A stretch of DNA of 64,000 nt from a phage. The notes beneath the pieces are model-generated. The model was not told the DNA's origin. It made no database searches and saw only the letters and a list, made by a program, of their open reading frames with translations. The stretch lies in NCBI GenBank assembly GCA_024672275.1, contig GCA_024672275.1_4536.1. One strand, 5' to 3'. The translations under genes were made by a program, and so were the position numbers. Shown in pieces: positions 60 to 51,174 of this stretch (position 1 is its first letter; each line of letters opens with the position of its first letter).

Positions 60-172
60 TTCTTACCTCCTTTGTTGTCAAAATAACTTACCAGAATATC
101 GTGAACCACACACATGGCAAAAATCAGAACAATTGTTGTCAGGACTGGATTCTCACTAATTAGTGCTATCAT
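56..172 (-). CDS. small hydrophobic protein (38 aa, one predicted TM helix)
   Basis: ATG 172..170 preceded by GGAGG; MIALISENPVLTTIVLIFAMCVVHDILVSYFDNKGGKK; the longer ORF-track version (to 253) would overlap the upstream gene by about 100 nt. Confidence 0.3.
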   Translation of the reverse strand: MIALISENPVLTTIVLIFAMCVVHDILVSYFDNKGGKK

Positions 173-479
173 CTTTAACCACCTCCAATTGCCTTTCGAG
201 TTTGACTTTGTTTGAGAACTGATAATGACACAACTTACATTGCATGTCAACAATCTGATCGTGATTTAACCCTACAATTTTAACTTCCTTTGCACCATGC
301 CACTCCAAATACTCAAAACCATCCAAATGATTACTCTTGTCCAACAGGAATGCTATCTGCTGCCATTCAATCTGAATGTCATTTAAATGATATGCTGCAC
401 AGAAGATATCCTCATAGTAAAAGACGATCATTGTCATTGCTTCGTCCAGCACAACTACCTCTTGTCTTGTAAATCTCAT
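156..479 (-). CDS. hypothetical protein (107 aa)
   Basis: ATG 479..477 with AGGAGG 5 nt upstream; uninterrupted ORF. Confidence 0.5.
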   Translation of the reverse strand: MRFTRQEVVVLDEAMTMIVFYYEDIFCAAYHLNDIQIEWQQIAFLLDKSNHLDGFEYLEWHGAKEVKIVGLNHDQIVDMQCKLCHYQFSNKVKLERQLEVVKDDSTN

Positions 480-732
480 TCTAGCCTCCTAAACGCGTCT
501 CTGACGCACTTTTTATATATAAGATGATAAATCACCTTACCTAGTAAGTGAACTTGCTCTACGAGCCTCTTATGAAGCTTATGTTATAGGATATACTATT
601 GCTACCTGTTTAAGCAAGGTTTTTGCACACAGAAAATAATTTTTAATAAAACTCTTGACTTTTGTGTTCGAAGTATGCTACCCTAGAAATCTATTAACGA
701 GCGCAGCGAGTTAAGGTTTTAGGTTGTTGATG

Positions 733-958
733 TAGTACTCTGTACTCAAGTACTGTACTCCGTACTAGATTAATAATTATTAAATATTAATAATTATTAA
801 ATATTAATAATAAATAATTATTAGATCTAACAAACAGGTACAGTGTATCAGAACTGGTACGTACAGATCAACTTCTATCAATTAAAAAATAAAATAATAA
901 ATTATTATAAATAATACTTGATCTATAGATCAGTATGAAGTACAGTACGTAACATCTT
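733..958. repeat. AT-rich repeat block between divergently oriented genes (GTACT iterons, tandem 17-mer, palindrome)
   Basis: five GTACT units about 733-768; attaataattattaaat x2 at 769-802 plus partial third copy; GTAC-containing units 838-955; palindrome gatctatagatc 920-931. Confidence 0.6.
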
Positions 959-978: not shown

Positions 979-1164
979 ATGATTAGTGAGAATCCGTGCA
1001 AATGGCATCATGTGCCTATTAAAGATTGTATGTCTTGTAATCCACGTTCTATTTATAACATTGCATCTTATGATGATGACAATGTGTTAGACGATGATGA
1101 AGGCTGGGAGGATTTAGATTGGACTGGTTATGAAACCAAAAAGGATAAAATTATTCCTAGTTGA
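979..1164 (+). CDS. hypothetical protein (61 aa, acidic C-terminus)
   Basis: ATG 979 with GGGAGG upstream; first plus-strand gene after the repeat block. Confidence 0.45.
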   Translation: MISENPCKWHHVPIKDCMSCNPRSIYNIASYDDDNVLDDDEGWEDLDWTGYETKKDKIIPS

Positions 1165-1956: not shown

Positions 1957-2031
1957 GGCCCTGTAGCTCAATGGGAGAGCTGTCGGCTCATAACCGATAG
2001 GTAGCTGGATCGAAACCAGCCAGGGCCACCA
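1957..2031 (+). tRNA. tRNA-Met (anticodon CAT), elongator-type
   Basis: acceptor ggccctg/cagggcc, D-arm gctc..gagc, anticodon loop ctCATaa, T-arm gctgg/ccagc, encoded CCA. Confidence 0.75.
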
Positions 2032-2033
2032 AC

Positions 2034-2108
2034 GTCTTTATGGTGTAATGGATAGCACAGGAGTCTTCTAAACTCTTAGTCAAGGTTCGATTCCTTGTAA
2101 AGACACCA
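2034..2108 (+). tRNA. tRNA-Arg (anticodon TCT)
   Basis: acceptor gtcttta/taaagac, anticodon loop ctTCTaa, T-arm caagg-ttcgatt-ccttg, encoded CCA. Confidence 0.7.
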
Positions 2109-2304
2109 GAACATTTTAACATGAATTAGCTCAAGTGATTTGAACCCACTACTGATCATGGTGGCAGAGAATGAGGCAAGTATGTCAGACATTATAAACA
2201 AAGGCCACGGTTATATTAGAAGACATAAATGCTCGAAGAGCACCGTTCGTTGAGAACGGTGGTTGGTGGAGTCACCATTCATGGTAAAATGTTTTAAAAA
2301 ACTA

Positions 2305-2334
2305 TTGACAACTAACATTATTTTATGTTAGATT
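2305..2334 (+). promoter_or_regulatory. sigma70-like promoter
   Basis: 'actattgaca' -35 at 2305-2310, weak -10 (ttagat/tagatt) 17-18 nt downstream; immediately precedes tRNA-Ser. Confidence 0.4.
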
Positions 2335-2342
2335 ATAAGTAT

Positions 2343-2433
2343 GGAAGGGCAAATCGACGTGGCGACGAAAACGGTCTTGAAAACCGCCGAGCTTGAAAGA
2401 GCCTTGGGAGTTCGACTCTCCCTCCTTCCGCCA
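2343..2433 (+). tRNA. tRNA-Ser (anticodon TGA), type II
   Basis: acceptor ggaaggg/tccttcc, anticodon arm cggtCTTGAAAaccg as in E. coli tRNA-Ser, long variable arm, T-arm gggag-ttcgact-ctccc, CCA. Confidence 0.7.
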
Positions 2434-2437
2434 GATT

Positions 2438-2523
2438 GGTAGATTGGTGAAATGGTAGCCACGACAGTTTGCTAAACTGTAGTCGGAAACGGCGTGTAGG
2501 TTCGAGTCCTACATCTACCGCCA
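2438..2523 (+). tRNA. tRNA-Ser (anticodon GCT), type II
   Basis: acceptor ggtagat/atctacc, anticodon stem acagt/actgt with loop ttGCTaa, long variable arm, T-arm gtagg-ttcgagt-cctac, CCA. Confidence 0.75.
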
Positions 2524-2653
2524 AGTTCTTTTTAATATAGCTTACTTTAATAGAGTAAACTTTCGGCAGATGGCCCCCACCATCTTACCGATACCTCATA
2601 GTTAGTGGTGCGAACACTGGCTATTTTAAAAAGAATTTAAATATTAGTATTTA

Positions 2654-2741
2654 GGTGAGTTAATTCCGTAGGGGTAGCGGGGCAGACTGTAAATCTGTTA
2701 TCATTGCGATTCGGGTGGTTCGACTCCATCACTCACCACCA
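2654..2741 (+). tRNA. tRNA-Tyr (anticodon GTA), type II
   Basis: acceptor ggtgagt/actcacc; anticodon arm gcagaCTGTAAAtctg nearly identical to E. coli tRNA-Tyr; long variable arm; CCA. Confidence 0.8.
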
Positions 2742-2747
2742 AATTAA

Positions 2748-2833
2748 GATGAGTTGGCTGAACGGTTTAAGCGGCGGACTGTTAATCCGTGTTCGAAAGA
2801 ACGATATAGGTTCAAATCCTATACTCATCGCCA
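2748..2833 (+). tRNA. unusual tRNA: Asn anticodon arm (GTT) on a type-II scaffold with long variable-arm hairpin
   Basis: acceptor gatgagt/actcatc (7 bp), 3-bp D-stem, anticodon arm gcggaCTGTTAAtccgt (as in E. coli tRNA-Asn), 15-nt variable arm with gttc-gaaa-gaac hairpin, T-arm atagg-ttcaaat-cctat, CCA. Confidence 0.55.
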
Positions 2834-2840
2834 GAATTAT

Positions 2841-2917
2841 GGACTTGTAGAGTTAAGGTAAACCCCCAGTCGCCAAGAGGCTTCTGGAATTGCAGGTATC
2901 GAATCCTGCCGAGTCCC
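2841..2917 (+). tRNA. tRNA-like element, non-canonical (8-nt T-loop, no clean anticodon arm); possible pseudo-tRNA
   Basis: acceptor-like ggacttg/cgagtcc and T-arm gcagg-tatcgaat-cctgc, but D and anticodon arms do not fold canonically; no encoded CCA. Confidence 0.3.
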
Positions 2918-2923
2918 AGCTTT

Positions 2924-2998
2924 GCTCCTATAGTATAATGGCTATTACAACGGTTTTGTAATCCGTGGATCTCTGTTCGATTCAGAGTGGGAGCACCA
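2924..2998 (+). tRNA. tRNA-Thr (anticodon TGT)
   Basis: acceptor gctccta/tgggagc, anticodon loop ttTGTaa (stem with one U-U mismatch), T-arm ctctg-ttcgatt-cagag, CCA. Confidence 0.6.
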
Positions 2999-3271
2999 AT
3001 ACAACATTAAGGGCACTGTGATTGATCGTCGTATCCTGTGCACAAGGTCTGCTCGAAAGACAGTGTTCTTAGTATTGTGTTGATCACACAAAGAGTTACC
3101 TGAAACTTGACCGGAGTAGGGTTGGATGGGGCAAAAGAAGAAGCGGCTCTCCCATCGACAGCAACGAAGAATAATATTTGACTTTGGTTTTGTATTATTT
3201 TAAGTTAGCTTACCGAACGTAGGGCTAGTCACCCAATGGGATACTCGTCACTGTCCCACTCAATAAAACTA

Positions 3272-3301
3272 TTGACAACCAATAGTAAAATGTAGTATAG
3301 T
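3272..3301 (+). promoter_or_regulatory. sigma70-like promoter
   Basis: 'actattgaca' -35 at 3272-3277, 18-nt spacer, tatagt -10 at 3296-3301; tRNA-Gly starts 12 nt downstream. Confidence 0.55.
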
Positions 3302-3312
3302 AAAGATGTAGG

Positions 3313-3386
3313 GCGTTCTTGGTGTAGCGGTAGCATTCCGTCCTTCCAAGTCGGCGGCACGAGTTCGATCCTCGTAGAACGCTCCA
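3313..3386 (+). tRNA. tRNA-Gly (anticodon TCC)
   Basis: acceptor gcgttct/agaacgc, anticodon loop ctTCCaa, T-arm acgag-ttcgatc-ctcgt, CCA. Confidence 0.8.
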
Positions 3387-3484
3387 AATTATTTAATAAA
3401 GGGTTGCCAGAAAACTTTCTCTTTTACTCATGGTTTTCTCCTTCTCTCACACCTCTTCTGGTTGCCCTTCATTAAATGATTTAT

Positions 3485-3560
3485 TGGTTTGTAGTGTAGT
3501 CCGGTAGCACACGACACTTTGACTGTCGTAGGTTTGGTTCAAATCCAGACAGACCAGCCA
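3485..3560 (+). tRNA. tRNA-Gln (anticodon TTG)
   Basis: acceptor tggtttg/cagacca (U1-A72), D-arm gtgt/acac, anticodon stem cgaca/tgtcg with loop ctTTGac, T-arm tttgg-ttcaaat-ccaga, CCA. Confidence 0.7.
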
Positions 3561-3565
3561 TATAA

Positions 3566-3642
3566 CGGAATTTAGCTCAGTTTGGTAGAGCATACGCTTT
3601 GGGAGCGTAGGGTCGCAGGTTCGAATCCTGCAATTCCGACCA
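3566..3642 (+). tRNA. tRNA-Pro (anticodon TGG)
   Basis: acceptor cggaatt/aattccg, D-arm gctc..gagc, anticodon loop ttTGGga, T-arm gcagg-ttcgaat-cctgc, CCA; close to E. coli tRNA-Pro. Confidence 0.85.
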
Positions 3643-3648
3643 ATCAAA

Positions 3649-3722
3649 TGTTTCGTAGTTCAATGGTAGAACCCACGACTGATAATCGTGAGACACAAGT
3701 TCGATTCTTGTCGAAACAACCA
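3649..3722 (+). tRNA. tRNA-Ile (anticodon GAT)
   Basis: acceptor tgtttcg/cgaaaca, D-arm gttc/gaac, anticodon stem cacga/tcgtg with loop ctGATaa, T-arm acaag-ttcgatt-cttgt, CCA. Confidence 0.8.
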
Positions 3723-3724
3723 GT

Positions 3725-3794
3725 TTCCCGTTAGACTTACAGGATAAGAGTTCCACAACTTATTGTGATGCTGGTTCGAATCCAGCACGGGATA
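3725..3794 (+). tRNA. tRNA-like element with oversized (10-nt) anticodon-region loop; possible pseudo-tRNA or non-canonical tRNA
   Basis: canonical T-arm gctgg-ttcgaat-ccagc and cccg/cggg acceptor pairing; internal stem ataag/cttat encloses agttccacaa; no CCA. Confidence 0.3.
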
Positions 3795-3800
3795 CATAAT

Positions 3801-3879
3801 AGCGGGATAGAGGAGTCTGGTCGTCCTCGCCAGTTTCATATGCTGGAGATCATCGGTTCAAATCCGATTCCCGCCTCCA
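3801..3879 (+). tRNA. tRNA-Met (anticodon CAT), initiator-like
   Basis: anticodon loop ttCATat; T-arm atcgg-ttcaaat-ccgat as in E. coli tRNA-fMet; unpaired A1-C72; CCA encoded. Confidence 0.65.
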
Positions 3880-9217: not shown

Positions 9218-9697
9218 ATGGAACTCAATAAAGATACACTGTGGGAACTCTTCAAAACCTTCGCTGGTTTTAAAGAGAATTCTGAATCCCAACAAGATTC
9301 TATACCATCTCAAAAACCTGAAACTCTAGTCAAACAAAATAAATTTGATGAAGAAAAGATGCAGGTTATTGAGGTCTTGTATTGTCCACCTGAAGAAGAT
9401 GATCTCCACGGAGAGCGCATGTCTGATTTGGAAATCAGGAAGATGGTTGACAACTTCAATGAGAATATTACCAATATTAGCGGTAATCTTGGTCACATGA
9501 AGAACACCGATAAGTTTGCTCCAATTAAAGCTTGGGTAAATGAAGTCGATTGTTACATTGGTGACGAACTCGTTGTGGAAGGAACTCCCCTCGTTAAAAT
9601 CCAATTCAACGACCCTGAATTATATCAAGCTCGTAAAGACGGCGTTCTTAAAGGTTTGAGTATAGGCGCAATGGGCGTTAAAGTCAAGAAGGACTAA
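9218..9697 (+). CDS. hypothetical head-module protein (159 aa)
   Basis: ORF between portal and scaffold-like gene; no recognisable motif. Confidence 0.4.
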   Translation: MELNKDTLWELFKTFAGFKENSESQQDSIPSQKPETLVKQNKFDEEKMQVIEVLYCPPEEDDLHGERMSDLEIRKMVDNFNENITNISGNLGHMKNTDKFAPIKAWVNEVDCYIGDELVVEGTPLVKIQFNDPELYQARKDGVLKGLSIGAMGVKVKKD

Positions 9698-22566: not shown

Positions 22567-23193
22567 ATGGGAATCCCTTTTGACTTAAAACTTGGACCAA
22601 ACAACGACCTCATCATGGACGATGGGGATTTGGTCCTTACCACAACCAGAACAGAAATTGCAGCACAAACTCTTGGGATAACTCTGAACACGTATCGTGG
22701 GGAGTGGTTTTTAAATACTAACTTCGGTGTTCCTTACTTACAAGAGATTATTGGTGTTGCTAGAAAGAAAGATATTGTAGACAGAATATTTTTAGCAGAG
22801 ATTGCCAAAAACGTTTACATAGATACAATAAACAGTTATAAATCTGCTTATGATATGGATCAACGTTATTACTCAATGACAGTTATGGTCACAGTTGGAG
22901 CAGATACAGTAACATCTATATTCAATACTCAACCTTCTGAAGAGTTTATTTACCCTGAAGCTGGCGAAGACAATGCAGCGATCATTTGTGAAGCTTACAG
23001 TATTGTTGAGAATTCGAATAGACTTTATCGCTTTATCAACTTTGTTGGTTTGCCACGTGATACCTACTCTACTTGGTGGAATGAATGGTCTACAGAGTCA
23101 GCAGTGGAAAGAATCATGGTTAACGAAAAAGGTGATGCATTAGCTACAAACAATGACTTCGGTATAACAGCTATGACAGGAGTAGAAGAGTAA
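22567..23193 (+). CDS. hypothetical baseplate-module protein
   Basis: 208 aa; operon context only. Confidence 0.35.
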   Translation: MGIPFDLKLGPNNDLIMDDGDLVLTTTRTEIAAQTLGITLNTYRGEWFLNTNFGVPYLQEIIGVARKKDIVDRIFLAEIAKNVYIDTINSYKSAYDMDQRYYSMTVMVTVGADTVTSIFNTQPSEEFIYPEAGEDNAAIICEAYSIVENSNRLYRFINFVGLPRDTYSTWWNEWSTESAVERIMVNEKGDALATNNDFGITAMTGVEE

Positions 23194-46606: not shown

Positions 46607-49600
46607 TCAGTGACAACTGGCCCAGGAATTCCCCACGTCATATCCAGCAGTAAGCTGAACATTAAGATTGTAAAATTCTCCAGCCTTAGTAACAGCTAAA
46701 GCAGCAAGTTCACCTGCCCGACTATAAGCTGTAAACCATCCACCTTTGGGAGATTCATGAATGTTAGCCCAAATTTGCCCTGTCTCTTTTTCCTTATTAT
46801 GCTTCCATTCTTCAACTTTAGCAAGGCATTCTTTATCAATTTTCTTTTGTTCTTCAGGATCGTCTACTTTCTTCCAACCTAATGATTCAGGTGAAAACCA
46901 TTTGAATTCTACGAGGTTACGAGAAACTTCAAGCTGGGCTTCATCGTGATATGCAATCATTTGTTGCACGAAGTCTTTATTCTTCCAGTCATCTTTAAAG
47001 AAGTCAACACTTAATCCTTCTTCTTCGATCATATCGTCATAAATAACCATTGCACGTTTAGCACAGATAACCCCACCGCTTTGGAACAGAGAGTTAAGAA
47101 TCGCGTGAGCAGAACGAGTAGGAACCTTACGACCGTCAATACCCAAAACATATTGTTTACCAGTCTTAACCCAGAAATCGTTTAAACGTTCTTTAAGACG
47201 CGCCAATGGGAATGCAGCTTCCCAGAAAGCATCGAACACCAATTGACCTGTAAACTTATCGCTACCAATTGTTTTAGCAACCTTGTCGGCTTGTGCACCA
47301 TAGGTAATACCATACTTAACAGATTTAGCAGGACTACGTTCAAATTTACGTCCAATAGTTTCAGTGATACGTTTTGCCATCATTGTGTGAACATCATTAG
47401 GTTTCTCTAACAACAGAGCGTTACAATATTCGTGTGGCTCCGGCTCGTACCGCCAACAGTTTCCTGTGATGGTAATGCAGTCTTTCTGACGCATGACCCA
47501 CGTACCAAGTTCTGTTTGTGGACACCAAACATCCTCTACACCCCACTCTTCAATAGTCAAACTTTGAACAGGAATGTGAGAGCGGTTAGTCAATGTTGCC
47601 ACTTTTACTTTCTGCTCTTTTGTATTGAAAGCTACAGAGATATTGCCTCCATGCACCAGGTACGAGGCAGTTAAAGCTGCTTCAAAAAGTTCACCTGGGT
47701 TCTGCGCCCAACGCCAAACAGGTTTTTGTTTATGTTCGTGCCAGTAACCATCTGCAATCAAGAAACCTTCCAAGAAAGCTACACGCTCGGCATGAGACAT
47801 ATTAACTACACGTTCTACCCACGGAACATCCCATTTACCTTGTTGAACATAAGTTAAACTATTTACCTGATCTTGTTCCATGTTAAATGGAGCATTACAA
47901 ATAATGTTATCTCCTGTGCAAAGCTCGGCAGTTGTTCTGACTTTAGGCACATAAGTATTCCCTTTACTACGGGTATTAACATACCAACGGTGATCTGCTG
48001 TTGCACGGTAAGTGTGTGATTTCCCTTTAATCTCAAACGTCTTACTATTTTTATAGAAGACCTTACCTTTTACTTTAGTCCATTCTTTCAGACCTGTTTC
48101 AGCATTGTACCCTAAAATCTCATCCCCTTCCTTCAGGTCGTGATATCCTACCCAACCTTTACGAGTCAAAGCTTGAGCATCCATCGGCACACAGTAGTGT
48201 GATTCAATTTTTGCTTCCAAAGAGTCGAAGTCGTAGCCAATCTGGAAGTATTTAGGAACCTCTACACCAAACAAGTTACGCATCTCCCATCCAAACAAAG
48301 ATGTGACACGAGGAATATTAGCTACAGATCTGTGCTTCATACGAGAAGTTGCAGCATCACATGTAGCGGCTGGGGTAGGAATACGACCATCTGCCCTTAC
48401 TGCGGCTAAGAAACCTTTATCGTATTCTTGATCTTCCTCATCTTCTTCCCAATCAGCACCACCACCTAAAATAGAGTTCCTACGATGTTTATACGTTAAG
48501 TATTCTACAATCTGCGTAGCATAAGGGAATTTCTCACCCAAAGCTTGCAGGTTAGGACAAATTTCTTTTTCCTGACCTTTGGTAAAACATGGGTTAGTCA
48601 ATACTTTAAGACCGCGACCTTTACCTTTTGCTATACGCTCTTGAATCTTCCTTTCCAAAGTTTCCGGTGTGCACTCCAGATGATCACAACGATCCTGACA
48701 AAAATTAGAAGATAGAGTTTGCTCAACGTAAGCTCTAATACCTTTCTGAAGTTCTTCCTCGCTCTTTTTAATTTTGGTGCCAGATTTAAGCGTCAAGTCT
48801 TTATCTTTATATTCAGACGGTACCCAACCTAATCCTACAAGCCAGTTTTTAATATGGGTTGTATCGTTCAATGTTGCAGGAATGTTAGGATCACATAGAG
48901 GCTCATCTGCTGCAACTGGCAGTTTCCACTCTTTCCCCAACATAACTAACCACCAATCGCCATCCCTCTCTTCCAAATGACCATCATGTTTCTTAGCAAA
49001 ATTGATCATATGGTTAGTTGGCTCTAAGTTCTTTTTAATTTGCAACTTAGGTGGAATAAAAGCCTTAAGATAACCTTTTGTTGCTGGTTTAGGTGGCAAA
49101 ATAGGCTCAACGAGTAAACGAAGACGCTCCATTTCTGCATCCAAAAAAGCAAGGTTCTCTTCTGCTTGTTTCATGTTAAAAGCAAACCCACGGTGTTCCT
49201 GGCGTGTAATAATGTCTGCTACACGTTGTTCAAGTTCAAATGGACCTTCCCATTTATCATAATCACCCCATTCTTCCATAAGGTAATTATATACGCTCGT
49301 ATTGGCTTTGTTGTCATAGATACAGTAATAAAGCATATCCGCAGCAAAAGTCTTAAATCGATCTTCTTCTGGAATCTCTTTACGGAAATCTATTTTTACA
49401 TCACCACCTGCTTTTCGAGAAAGTGCTGCCAAGCTATGTCCTGATTTGCCCTCAATCTTTCGATCTGGGTTTAACACTTTACTCAAAATCAAGGAGTCAA
49501 TAAGTTTTACCTTATTTTTGCCCCACGTATTATATTTAACACTGTAATCTAATCCATAAAACAGTTTTGTAGCCAACCAGTCGTAGTTGATACCGTTGTG

Positions 49601-49939
49601 AGCCACAGCCATTTCAACTAGATATTCAGGCTTGTCTTTAAAATAACCTTCATGATTAATAAAATCTGGGAAATCTTTTAGTTGAAAATGTGTGTAATCT
49701 TGCGCCACATACTCTTTAAGAACATATGTGTATTTACCATCTGACTCTTCGTAAGGACGCCCATCAAAGATGTATTTAGGGCCATCGTGGAAAGCTACTA
49801 TTTCTCCTGTTTCATGGTTCTCTAAGACAATACAGTGCATTTGAAATGTGTCTTTGAGACGATAAGGACTAGCTAAATAATCAATAGTGTCATTATTCAA
49901 CAATCCGTTTGCTTCAATATCCCATGTAAACTTACTCAC
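46607..49939 (-). CDS. DNA polymerase, family A with N-terminal 3'-5' exonuclease, interrupted by an intein
   Basis: 1110 aa; exo motif DIEANGL; motif A-like DFDSLEAKIESHY split from downstream extein; motif B RSPAKSVKYGITYG (compare Klenow RRSAKAINFGLIYG). Confidence 0.85.
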   Translation of the reverse strand: MSKFTWDIEANGLLNNDTIDYLASPYRLKDTFQMHCIVLENHETGEIVAFHDGPKYIFDGRPYEESDGKYTYVLKEYVAQDYTHFQLKDFPDFINHEGYFKDKPEYLVEMAVAHNGINYDWLATKLFYGLDYSVKYNTWGKNKVKLIDSLILSKVLNPDRKIEGKSGHSLAALSRKAGGDVKIDFRKEIPEEDRFKTFAADMLYYCIYDNKANTSVYNYLMEEWGDYDKWEGPFELEQRVADIITRQEHRGFAFNMKQAEENLAFLDAEMERLRLLVEPILPPKPATKGYLKAFIPPKLQIKKNLEPTNHMINFAKKHDGHLEERDGDWWLVMLGKEWKLPVAADEPLCDPNIPATLNDTTHIKNWLVGLGWVPSEYKDKDLTLKSGTKIKKSEEELQKGIRAYVEQTLSSNFCQDRCDHLECTPETLERKIQERIAKGKGRGLKVLTNPCFTKGQEKEICPNLQALGEKFPYATQIVEYLTYKHRRNSILGGGADWEEDEEDQEYDKGFLAAVRADGRIPTPAATCDAATSRMKHRSVANIPRVTSLFGWEMRNLFGVEVPKYFQIGYDFDSLEAKIESHYCVPMDAQALTRKGWVGYHDLKEGDEILGYNAETGLKEWTKVKGKVFYKNSKTFEIKGKSHTYRATADHRWYVNTRSKGNTYVPKVRTTAELCTGDNIICNAPFNMEQDQVNSLTYVQQGKWDVPWVERVVNMSHAERVAFLEGFLIADGYWHEHKQKPVWRWAQNPGELFEAALTASYLVHGGNISVAFNTKEQKVKVATLTNRSHIPVQSLTIEEWGVEDVWCPQTELGTWVMRQKDCITITGNCWRYEPEPHEYCNALLLEKPNDVHTMMAKRITETIGRKFERSPAKSVKYGITYGAQADKVAKTIGSDKFTGQLVFDAFWEAAFPLARLKERLNDFWVKTGKQYVLGIDGRKVPTRSAHAILNSLFQSGGVICAKRAMVIYDDMIEEEGLSVDFFKDDWKNKDFVQQMIAYHDEAQLEVSRNLVEFKWFSPESLGWKKVDDPEEQKKIDKECLAKVEEWKHNKEKETGQIWANIHESPKGGWFTAYSRAGELAALAVTKAGEFYNLNVQLTAGYDVGNSWASCH
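47459..48193 (-). mobile_element. intein (245 aa) with LAGLIDADG homing-endonuclease motif, inserted just after polymerase motif A
   Basis: starts Cys583 (CVPMDAQALTRKGW), TxxH block (TADH), LEGFLIADGYWHEH, ends ...DCITITGN followed by Cys(+1). Confidence 0.7.
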
Positions 49940-50733
49940 TATTCCTCCTTTCTAATGTTCTCCAGAACCCACTGAAGTTCTTTTAAACTTAAACTTCTTA
50001 CTCCCGCAGTTTTACTAGCTTCAGCTTTAAGTAACGGGTAAGCCTCAATGATACGCGTTTTAAGATCAGAAGTCAAGGCTTTTAAAAAATAGGTAGATGC
50101 TTCAGATAAAGAATCTTCTTCTGATAACACTTTACCTGCACTTGCTCCCGCTCTCCTAACGACTATATCGTAGTCTTTACTGTTACCTAATACGAATAGT
50201 CGATTCTCTCCTAAAACAACGGGAGAACGCTTCTCGTTGCGTTTAATCCATACCTGGAATACACAAGGAACATCCCAAGGTTCTCCATGAAGAATAAAAG
50301 ATCCTTTTGGACATTCTTCTTCGTAAAGAAGATGCATATGGGGATTTAGCTTGTGTGCAAAAAAGATTTTTTGAAATGTGCGAGGCAAGATAAAACAAAT
50401 ACCACCTTCGTTATCCAGCATTTCAGCACAATGGTTAAAGAATTTAATGGCAAGACTAGCATTTTTTCCAAATGGAGGATTACCGACAAAAGCAGTTACA
50501 CTACCAACAGACTCAACAGATTGAGCTAAAAAATCTGCCTCAATACAATCTTCAAACTTAGGGTCAATATCAAAAGAAGTTATGTTTTTAAAACAAGAAG
50601 AGAAAGCTCCTTCTCCCGCAGATGGTTCTACGTAGTTAGCTTCCTCTCCAAAAATTTCTTTGATCTTATCACATAAGAACCCCGCATAAGCGGGGTTAGT
50701 GTAATATTGATCAAGTGTGTTCAACTTGCTCAA
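49939..50733 (-). CDS. DNA N6-adenine methyltransferase
   Basis: 264 aa; motif I-like VEPSAGEGAF and catalytic NPPF (DPPY-class) in FVGNPPFGKN; stop overlaps polymerase start. Confidence 0.6.
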   Translation of the reverse strand: MSKLNTLDQYYTNPAYAGFLCDKIKEIFGEEANYVEPSAGEGAFSSCFKNITSFDIDPKFEDCIEADFLAQSVESVGSVTAFVGNPPFGKNASLAIKFFNHCAEMLDNEGGICFILPRTFQKIFFAHKLNPHMHLLYEEECPKGSFILHGEPWDVPCVFQVWIKRNEKRSPVVLGENRLFVLGNSKDYDIVVRRAGASAGKVLSEEDSLSEASTYFLKALTSDLKTRIIEAYPLLKAEASKTAGVRSLSLKELQWVLENIRKEE

Positions 50734-50742
50734 TAGTCCTCC

Positions 50743-51174
50743 TTAGTTGTTAGCGAACTCAATAGTGAGGTCAACTTTACCATCATCAGAAATAACCATG
50801 TTTTTAGTATTTTTAAAGATGATATCTACTTTACCTTCACTTACACGACAGAATGCAACACCATCTGCAACTTTATCGATATAATATTTGTAAGAAAGAA
50901 TACCCACTTTACTACGACCAGCACCTTTTGTGAAAGAAGGGCTTACATCGAAACGGAAACCTTTAGAAGAAACAACACGGTAAGAACGTCCAGTTGGGAT
51001 ATGTTCAATAACAGAAACATTGTTCTCAACAACTTTTACAGCAAACTCTTCAGGATGATCCTCAACAATCATATGTGGGATGGCAAATGCCAACGCTTGT
51101 TTGTGTTTAATAACACCAGCACCCAGAGCACCAGCAGCTTTAACTTTTGCATTCAGATCGATTGTCATACGCAT
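50743..51174 (-). CDS. hypothetical protein (143 aa)
   Basis: ATG 51174 with AGAGGAGAA RBS and its own promoter. Confidence 0.5.
   Translation of the reverse strand: MRMTIDLNAKVKAAGALGAGVIKHKQALAFAIPHMIVEDHPEEFAVKVVENNVSVIEHIPTGRSYRVVSSKGFRFDVSPSFTKGAGRSKVGILSYKYYIDKVADGVAFCRVSEGKVDIIFKNTKNMVISDDGKVDLTIEFANN

Follow-up and report, generated by a model that had tools for sequence, protein, structure and literature searches.

Predicted two-way promoter hub with lineage-specific repeats at the divergent gene junction of a phAPEC8-like coliphage

The 226-bp block at positions 733–958 of the 64,000-nucleotide stretch of phage DNA analysed here (“the window”) sits within a 500-bp non-coding spacer (480–978) between two divergent gene sets, and combines GTAC-containing repeats, palindromes and extremely AT-rich DNA. 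We read the block, with a probability of a little over one half (about 0.55), as part of the main two-way transcription-control junction of the phage, i.e., a promoter hub that carries lineage-specific simple repeats. The initial annotation had offered two interpretations, an origin of replication built from iterons and an unwinding region, or a regulatory hub with divergent early promoters. The second is the better supported of the two, by three predicted sigma-70-type elements whose positions are kept in related phages. On the same reading, the GTACT array and an adjoining 55-bp tract of A and T only would be simple-sequence expansions that only the phAPEC8-type lineage has, outside the conserved machinery. 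In kind, the block is an ordinary phage intergenic control region with simple-sequence expansions, and it holds one anomaly, a cluster of GTAC sites.

The first 8 kb of the window share 99.2% identity with Escherichia phage Mt1B1_P17 (Phapecoctavirus, Stephanstirmvirinae; genome of ~151 kb); judged by its sequence, the source of the window is a phAPEC8-like coliphage of the genus Phapecoctavirus. Genome-wide figures (~154 kb) were computed on a phAPEC8-type composite genome. The minus-strand gene set ending at 479 and the plus-strand set starting at 979, as named in the initial annotation, are confirmed by open reading frames at 156–479 and 979–1164. The spacer would thereby divide a leftward block of early and nucleotide-metabolism genes from a rightward block of small genes, tRNAs, terminase and structural genes. 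In Mt1B1_P17, the leftward block goes on to genes for phosphoesterase, ligase, exonuclease and NrdAB (ribonucleotide reductase). The rightward block comprises three small genes, ten tRNA genes (1957–3879) and genes for spanin, large terminase, portal and structural proteins, and extends to ~43.8 kb; the large terminase gene lies 4.4 kb downstream of the block.

Three promoters are predicted in the spacer, each with −35 and −10 hexamers at the 16–18-bp spacing of sigma-70 promoters and, optionally, a TGn extension. P1 (655–684, plus strand) reads TTGACT (655–660)-N18-TGc-TACCCT (679–684), with an extended −10 and a predicted start at ~691. PL2 (871–842, minus strand) reads TTGATC (871–866)-N18-TGa-TACACT (847–842), again with an extended −10, and has a predicted start at ~835. 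P2 (918–946, plus strand) reads TTGATC (918–923)-N17-TACAGT (941–946), with a predicted start at ~953. P1 and PL2 were obtained from a promoter pattern scan, P2 only from a relaxed scan. The pattern TTGA[CT]N-N14-16-TGnTAnnnT, which includes P1 and PL2, occurs 14 times in the window versus 1.7 times in shuffled sequences, and all nine matches to the stricter TTGAC[AT] form run with the local gene orientation.

The spacer was compared across phAPEC8-type genomes, the phiWec-type Phapecoctavirus (phiWec188, LC739537.1, loci L023–L025; 78.5% identity over 81% of the genome), the phi92-like BME3 of the sister genus Justusliebigvirus, and a fourth lineage from IMG/VR (locus L080). P1, PL2 and P2 keep the same order and positions in all four lineages, with diverged sequence in between. 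P1 is unchanged, or at least kept in position, in phiWec188, BME3 and L080. In PL2, the −35, TG and TAnnnT are invariant alignment columns, while the bases between them vary (TTGATC-18-TGt-TACTAT in phiWec188, TTGTTA-17-TGt-TAGTAT in BME3, TTGATT-17-TATAGT in L080). The counterparts of P2 (TTGACT-18-TGt-TAGAGT, TTGACT-17-TAGAGT and TTGATC-17-TACACT, in the same order) are all stronger than P2 of the window, and the AT-rich spacer between PL2 and P2 is retained in phiWec188, BME3 (as a 35-nt A/T run) and L080. The comparison with related phages, which the initial annotation had proposed, thus finds the three promoters kept but not the GTACT array and the 55-bp AT tract, both of which are absent from phiWec-type genomes, BME3 and L080 and occur only in the phAPEC8-type lineage. 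Within that lineage, repeat copy numbers vary between genomes of 98–99% identity: GTACT units number five in most genomes and three in DW-EC; the 17-mer of the 55-bp tract has 3.2 copies in the window and 2.2 in most relatives, phAPEC8 being 3 nt shorter; AAGGTTT is present in one to three copies among the relatives (two to three in anhysbys and UP17); and the ATTATAAATA unit of a second A/T tract in one or two.

That the promoters are active, where transcription starts and whether P1 and PL2 interfere with each other is inferred from these elements and their conservation. Host RNA polymerase would start at P1 (~691, plus strand), PL2 (~835, minus strand) and P2 (~953, plus strand). Because P1 and PL2 face each other, their transcripts would overlap, by ~145 nt in the window and by ~90–95 nt in the relatives, as estimated from predicted promoter positions. 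PL2 and P2 would stand back to back, with the 37-bp A/T spacer between them probably acting as shared UP-element-like upstream DNA. The GTACT array and the 55-bp near-palindrome fall inside the predicted P1/PL2 overlap, would lengthen it and may tune it. Face-to-face promoter switches decide between lysis and lysogeny in coliphages 186 and P2, which are temperate and have known repressors. The likeness lies in two promoters that fire toward each other over a short overlap, here as predicted from sequence, and interference or antisense pairing would therefore be expected between P1 and PL2; the phage of the window, in contrast to 186 and P2, is virulent. The related large myovirus rV5 is reported to have bidirectional promoters at a divergent junction (genes 10/11), predicted to be of sigma-70 type and several with an extended −10, and its GC-skew switches merely track transcription direction (PMC3606486), as they do in the window. 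The corresponding rV5 junction inspected here, which we do not equate with the gene 10/11 junction of that paper, measures ~119 bp and has no repeat arrays, whereas the window has a 500-bp spacer, the extra face-to-face P1, the GTACT array and two A/T-only tracts.

Directly downstream of P1 lies a leader element (694–714, plus strand), in which GAGCGCAGCGAG (699–710) is enclosed by a TTAAC/GTTAA stem. Both the phAPEC8-type composite (window 655–714; Mt1B1_P17 record ~22960–23015 and 135113–135168) and phiWec188 (64571 on the minus strand, 104546 and 142214 on the plus strand) contain the promoter-plus-leader module TTGACT..TGnTACCCTA-(short hairpin)-GAGCG(N1-3)AGCGAG in exactly three copies per genome, at syntenic sites. 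Further copies lie in BME3 (L022, ~19121, minus strand) and in the IMG/VR loci L040, L047, L049, L076, L080, L082, L090 and L102. Scans for the leader motif gave only two informative contigs in the metagenome and mostly chance matches among viral contigs, of which eight pass the promoter filter. The closing bases of the stem vary by copy (AAC/GUU, CC/GG, UAC/GUA), which points to a hairpin whose loop is conserved. One copy of the module is oriented antisense into a minus-strand gene block. Possibly, the leader module loads a regulatory protein onto RNA or polymerase. A reading of the P1 leader as ops/RfaH-like was dropped: in a comparison by eye with the ops consensus, the variable central bases fall on the residues critical for ops.

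The repeats of the block, to which no strand is assigned, were all found where the initial annotation had placed them. Its five GTACT units start at 735, 742, 750, 755 and 762 and form an array (735–766) of two 12-mers, GTACTCYGTACT (735–746 and 755–766), plus the GTACT at 750, with AGTACT palindromes at 734 and 749; its further GTAC units lie at 838, 857, 861, 940 and 945. The 17-mer ATTAATAATTATTAAAT is perfectly repeated at 769–785 and 786–802, and a third, degenerate copy reaches 823 (Tandem Repeats Finder: period 17, 3.2 copies, 92% matches), so that 55 bp (769–823) consist of A and T only. This tract contains the perfect 14-bp palindrome TTAATAATTATTAA twice (770–783 and 787–800), and 766–826 is a near-palindrome overall, with flanks TAGAT and AGATCTA; folded as single-stranded DNA, the near-palindrome of the tract has a z-score of −4.55. 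A second A/T-only tract (37 bp, 880–916) separates the back-to-back −35 boxes of PL2 and P2. The palindrome reported earlier, GATCTATAGATC, is present at 920–931 as the single occurrence in the window; gatctatagatc lengthens to a perfect 14-bp palindrome, TGATCTATAGATCA (919–932), which holds two GATC sites and overlaps P2. Just outside the block lies one copy of the short repeat AAGGTTT(T) (713–728). AGTAC/GTACT is found nine times in the block versus 0.15 expected (P ~1e-13) and GATC four times versus ~0.9. The segment 769–823 is the least stable 50-mer of the ~154 kb (−0.838 kcal per step versus a mean of −1.29, sd 0.077; the next at −1.00), and 880–916 ranks second in length among A/T-only runs. 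The AT-palindrome unit and TGATCTATAGATCA are each confined to this locus in the ~154 kb. A chance origin of these features is excluded.

The anomaly concerns GTAC itself, which occurs 66 times in the window versus 202–229 expected, the lowest observed/expected ratio (~0.3) of the 256 tetranucleotides, and 157 times in the phAPEC8-type genome of ~154 kb (473–547 expected). Ten of the 66 window copies lie inside the block, and the next-best 226-bp stretch has three in the window and four elsewhere in the genome. Across the non-nanopore phAPEC8-type genomes examined, these ten sites are nearly invariant. Five of them fall into predicted promoter cores (838, 857 and 861 in the PL2 discriminator and spacer; 940 and 945 in the P2 −10), where the relatives carry TGTTAG-type −10 elements. 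The observed/expected ratio amounts to 0.29–0.33 in phAPEC8-type genomes, 0.47–0.55 in rV5 (where GTAC is also the most avoided tetranucleotide), 0.62–0.67 in phiWec188 and 0.67–0.70 in BME3. In phiWec188, the count of CTAG is 0 in 149.8 kb (243–557 expected), while phAPEC8-type genomes have 183 copies. We infer that sister lineages have purged different 4-bp palindromes and thereby avoided different host restriction systems.

One public genome seems to have lost GTAC. In BI-EHEC (OL505078, locus L012; nanopore-only), 19 of the 40 GTAC sites aligned to positions 1–50000 of the window differ (47%), in most cases by reading ATAC or GTAT. No other tetranucleotide is changed as often, the runner-up standing at 20%; phAPEC8, which is equally diverged overall, differs at 5 of 41 sites. 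The ATAC/GTAT-type changes of BI-EHEC comprise five non-synonymous to three synonymous ones, versus 148:554 in the background. Given the nanopore-only data and the excess of non-synonymous changes, they resemble base-calling artefacts at a motif carrying a modification, and the public sequence probably carries systematic errors at host-modified GTAC. The loss of GTAC in BI-EHEC was accordingly rejected as proof that the array is dispensable. Beside the DNA polymerase gene, the window carries a two-gene insert that is absent from phiWec188. It encodes a gamma-class N6-adenine (amino-)methyltransferase (49939–50733, minus strand; motifs DQYYTNP, VEPSAGEGAF and NPPF; rV5-like homologs 53–54% identical) and a 143-aa protein matching phrog_9938, function unassigned (50743–51174, minus strand); homologs of the enzyme are unnamed SAM-dependent methyltransferases. 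In DW-EC, sequenced through the identical nanopore-only pipeline, none of the 25 aligned GTAC sites is substituted despite an intact copy of the same methyltransferase; this contrast makes a host source probable for the modification in BI-EHEC, and GTAC specificity improbable for the phage enzyme. The enzyme was dropped as the GTAC modifier on this counter-case; its tie to GTAC depletion is also imperfect, for rV5 has a homolog and an observed/expected ratio of only ~0.5.

Several points weigh against the promoter hub. The promoters P1, PL2 and P2 are predictions from consensus, and P2 is weak in the window, with 8 of 12 matches and no TG. The hub gives no reason why ten GTAC sites are kept in a genome that has purged GTAC to ~0.3, and the 55-bp near-palindrome, 100% A/T and the least stable DNA of the genome, exceeds what a promoter spacer needs. 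The AT-palindrome unit and TGATCTATAGATCA, unique to the locus, fit a dedicated site (e.g., an origin) as well as a local operator. Moreover, an inverted copy of the array 12-mer TACTCCGTACTA stands in the L080 junction (E = 0.012), which hints that at least one GTAC unit predates recent slippage.

Each of the alternatives takes up some of these points. The T7 primary origin consists of promoters 1.1A/1.1B and an AT-rich region, and T4 oriF/oriG of a promoter and a downstream unwinding element with an R-loop as primer; an origin of this promoter-plus-unwinding-element type, although unlikely, is the least improbable alternative. In such an origin, transcripts started at P1 and/or PL2 would run into the 55-bp tract and open the duplex or leave primer RNA, after which the phage replisome would load; divergent transcription from PL2 and P2 may open the 37-bp tract by negative supercoiling, and an accessory protein would dock at GTAC units or TAGATC motifs. 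Like the T7 and T4 origins, the spacer has predicted promoters that would read into easily melted DNA, namely both A/T tracts, P1 (~691) and PL2 (~835) being directed into 769–823. That tract is the least stable duplex in ~154 kb and a cruciform-capable near-palindrome, and the second-longest A/T run, 880–916, belongs to a PL2–P2 spacer that is AT-rich in all four lineages. The excess of GATC and the confinement of the repeats to one locus point the same way, and the phage has polymerase and helicase genes of its own (DNA polymerase I is annotated, and rV5 relatives have a gp4/DnaB-like helicase; PMC3606486). However, unlike in T7 and T4, the 55-bp tract is lineage-specific and length-polymorphic; both tract and array are missing from phiWec-type genomes, BME3 and L080. 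The orientation-corrected residual GC skew at the block is r = −0.022, i.e., of the wrong sign (a weak test, confounded by compositional differences between gene blocks), and with gene orientation regressed out, weak and confounded origin-like optima fall at ~0–1 kb and 20–24 kb of the genome. No DnaA box turned up in the block even with one mismatch allowed, nor did an IHF consensus; an adjacent initiator gene was not found (Pfam and PHROGs gave no DNA-binding or Rep match for the small proteins on either side), and the replication genes are 43–77 kb distant. Iteron origins, such as lambda ori and those of iteron plasmids, have regularly phased repeats of ~17–22 bp in or beside the initiator gene. 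The block resembles them in that short repeated motifs adjoin an AT-rich tract, but its GTACT units measure 5 nt at irregular spacings of 7, 8, 5 and 7 bp. Of the iteron-based origin proposed initially, the repeats and an AT-rich, unwinding-prone tract are thus present, while iteron size and phasing, an adjacent initiator and conservation are lacking, and the only 17-bp repeat is the AT tract itself rather than an array beside a separate unwinding region. Far less probable is a structured non-coding RNA transcribed from P1 or PL2, with the repeats as structural elements: both strands fold better than shuffles (z ~ −2.9) and P1 carries the conserved leader motif, but this motif falls outside 733–958, the predicted stability stems from the A/U near-palindrome that the relatives lack, a search of Rfam at E ≤ 1 over 1–2000 returned only a tRNA, and an intrinsic terminator was not found downstream. 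The pac site of bacteriophage P1 consists of clusters of GATC-containing hexamers, the methylation of which controls cleavage, and the block likewise has clusters of a short (4-bp) palindromic, methylatable motif around a central region, upstream of packaging genes with the large terminase gene among them. A packaging site or genome terminus is nevertheless exceedingly improbable and was rejected, given that the Mt1B1_P17 record (NC_052662.1; L015 1–328 and L016 last 328 nt) begins and ends with the same 328 bp, an exact direct terminal repeat ~53 kb away from the block. This repeat lies inside a ~1.9-kb non-coding region amid small minus-strand genes and has first bases similar to those of the BME3 record; the 342-bp terminal repeat reported for BME3 is also located elsewhere. 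The record of nieznany (MN850598, L004) does open inside the AT repeat of the block, most likely as an assembly break at an extremely AT-rich repeat and not as a physical end.

The cluster of GTAC might, alternatively, be a selected, lineage-specific array for binding or modification, at which a GTAC-reading regulator or a methyltransferase switches promoters. Since the ten sites coincide with the PL2 spacer and start point, with the P2 −10 and with the P1 leader, their occupancy would make the junction a methylation- or repressor-controlled hub. Such an array, which we consider improbable, draws on the persistence of ten nearly invariant copies in the most GTAC-depleted lineage, on the five sites within PL2 and P2 core elements, on the apparent modification of GTAC in at least one virion stock (BI-EHEC versus phAPEC8), and on a gamma-class methyltransferase that phiWec188 lacks. 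Against this, DW-EC makes the phage enzyme a poor candidate for the GTAC modifier and is viable with three units instead of five, the spacing of paired GTACs (0, 1, 1, 3 and 3 bp) is ill-suited to a rigid dimer, and relatives keep the same promoter layout without any GTAC. Avoidance of host GTAC restriction is a simpler explanation of the depletion, but one that leaves the ten retained sites unaccounted for. A broader version is doubtful as well, if slightly less so: the array and the AT near-palindrome together would be a functional module gained by the phAPEC8-type lineage and held against the removal of GTAC, either an origin in which GTAC-bearing protein sites flank the unwinding element or a promoter switch that responds to the state of GTAC methylation left by the last host. 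A TrpR-type operator (GTACT-N8-AGTAC) was tried and rejected, with no match within two mismatches in 733–958 and 26 matches in the window versus 27.7 by chance.

To our knowledge, transcription control and replication initiation have not been studied experimentally in phAPEC8-, phi92- and rV5-like phages, many of which are under development for therapy and food safety. The promoter-hub reading provides three predicted promoters, a conserved promoter-plus-leader module with three copies per genome, and a conserved junction core that can be told apart from lineage-specific repeats. Length polymorphism in near-identical isolates makes these repeats possible strain markers, and they account for the assembly break at the block. 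If the GTAC cluster were functional, it would be a motif kept at one locus and purged everywhere else in the genome; if switched by methylation, it could allow the phage to sense recent passage through a host with a GTAC restriction-modification system.

At another divergent junction, ~77 kb from the block and outside the window, lies the only O-like winged-helix protein found, gp053 of Mt1B1_P17 (L015 20722–21708; 328 aa), with two winged-helix domains, a “replication initiation O-like” PHROG match and a C-terminal endonuclease-like domain. Since phiWec188 lacks gp053, its gene may be a mobile accessory one and not that of the initiator; on this ground and that of the endonuclease-like domain, gp053 was dropped as a guide to where replication truly starts. 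TATAAATA (906–913), immediately upstream of the P2 −35, equals the T4 late-promoter consensus, of which the window has only four copies; TTATAAATAA is common to the window and the L080 lineage at the same position. A similar late-type motif has been described upstream of late genes in rV5, yet homologs of gp55, gp33 or gp45 are lacking there (PMC3606486).

The genes that border the spacer encode small proteins. The first leftward gene (156–479, minus strand; 107 aa) matches phrog_14390, function unassigned, and has a candidate proximal promoter of its own at 552–524 (minus strand; TTCACT-17-TATCAT). The first rightward gene (979–1164, plus strand; 61 aa), preceded by a ribosome-binding site (GGGAGG, 967–972), matches phrog_26411, again with function unassigned, and its product gave no match in a Pfam search. 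Homologs of the 61-aa protein are confined to Phapecoctavirus, bar weak matches in Seunavirus; the Seunavirus homolog was dropped as a guide to synteny, for it does not lie at a divergent junction. Next to the portal gene, the product of 9218–9697 (plus strand), publicly labelled “DNA methyltransferase”, matches an XkdF-like phage serine protease (PF14550, E = 1.4e-11) and is more likely a prohead protease than a methyltransferase; two other annotated “DNA methyltransferases” were set aside for want of family support. The open reading frame over the DNA polymerase I gene (46607–49939, minus strand) encodes 1110 aa here versus 865 aa annotated in phAPEC8, and the window is ~3.4 kb longer than Mt1B1_P17 somewhere between two splice points of the composite genome; an insertion (an intein or a homing-endonuclease gene) or an upstream alternative start codon could explain the longer polymerase frame. 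Finally, the extended −10 family (TTGAC[AT]-N14-16-TGnTAnnnT, often TGTTAnnnT) is clustered ahead of small genes and the tRNA cluster, with sites at 655, 1161, 1718, 2305, 4037, 19599, 25095 and 33398 on the plus strand and at 871 and 45376 on the minus strand.

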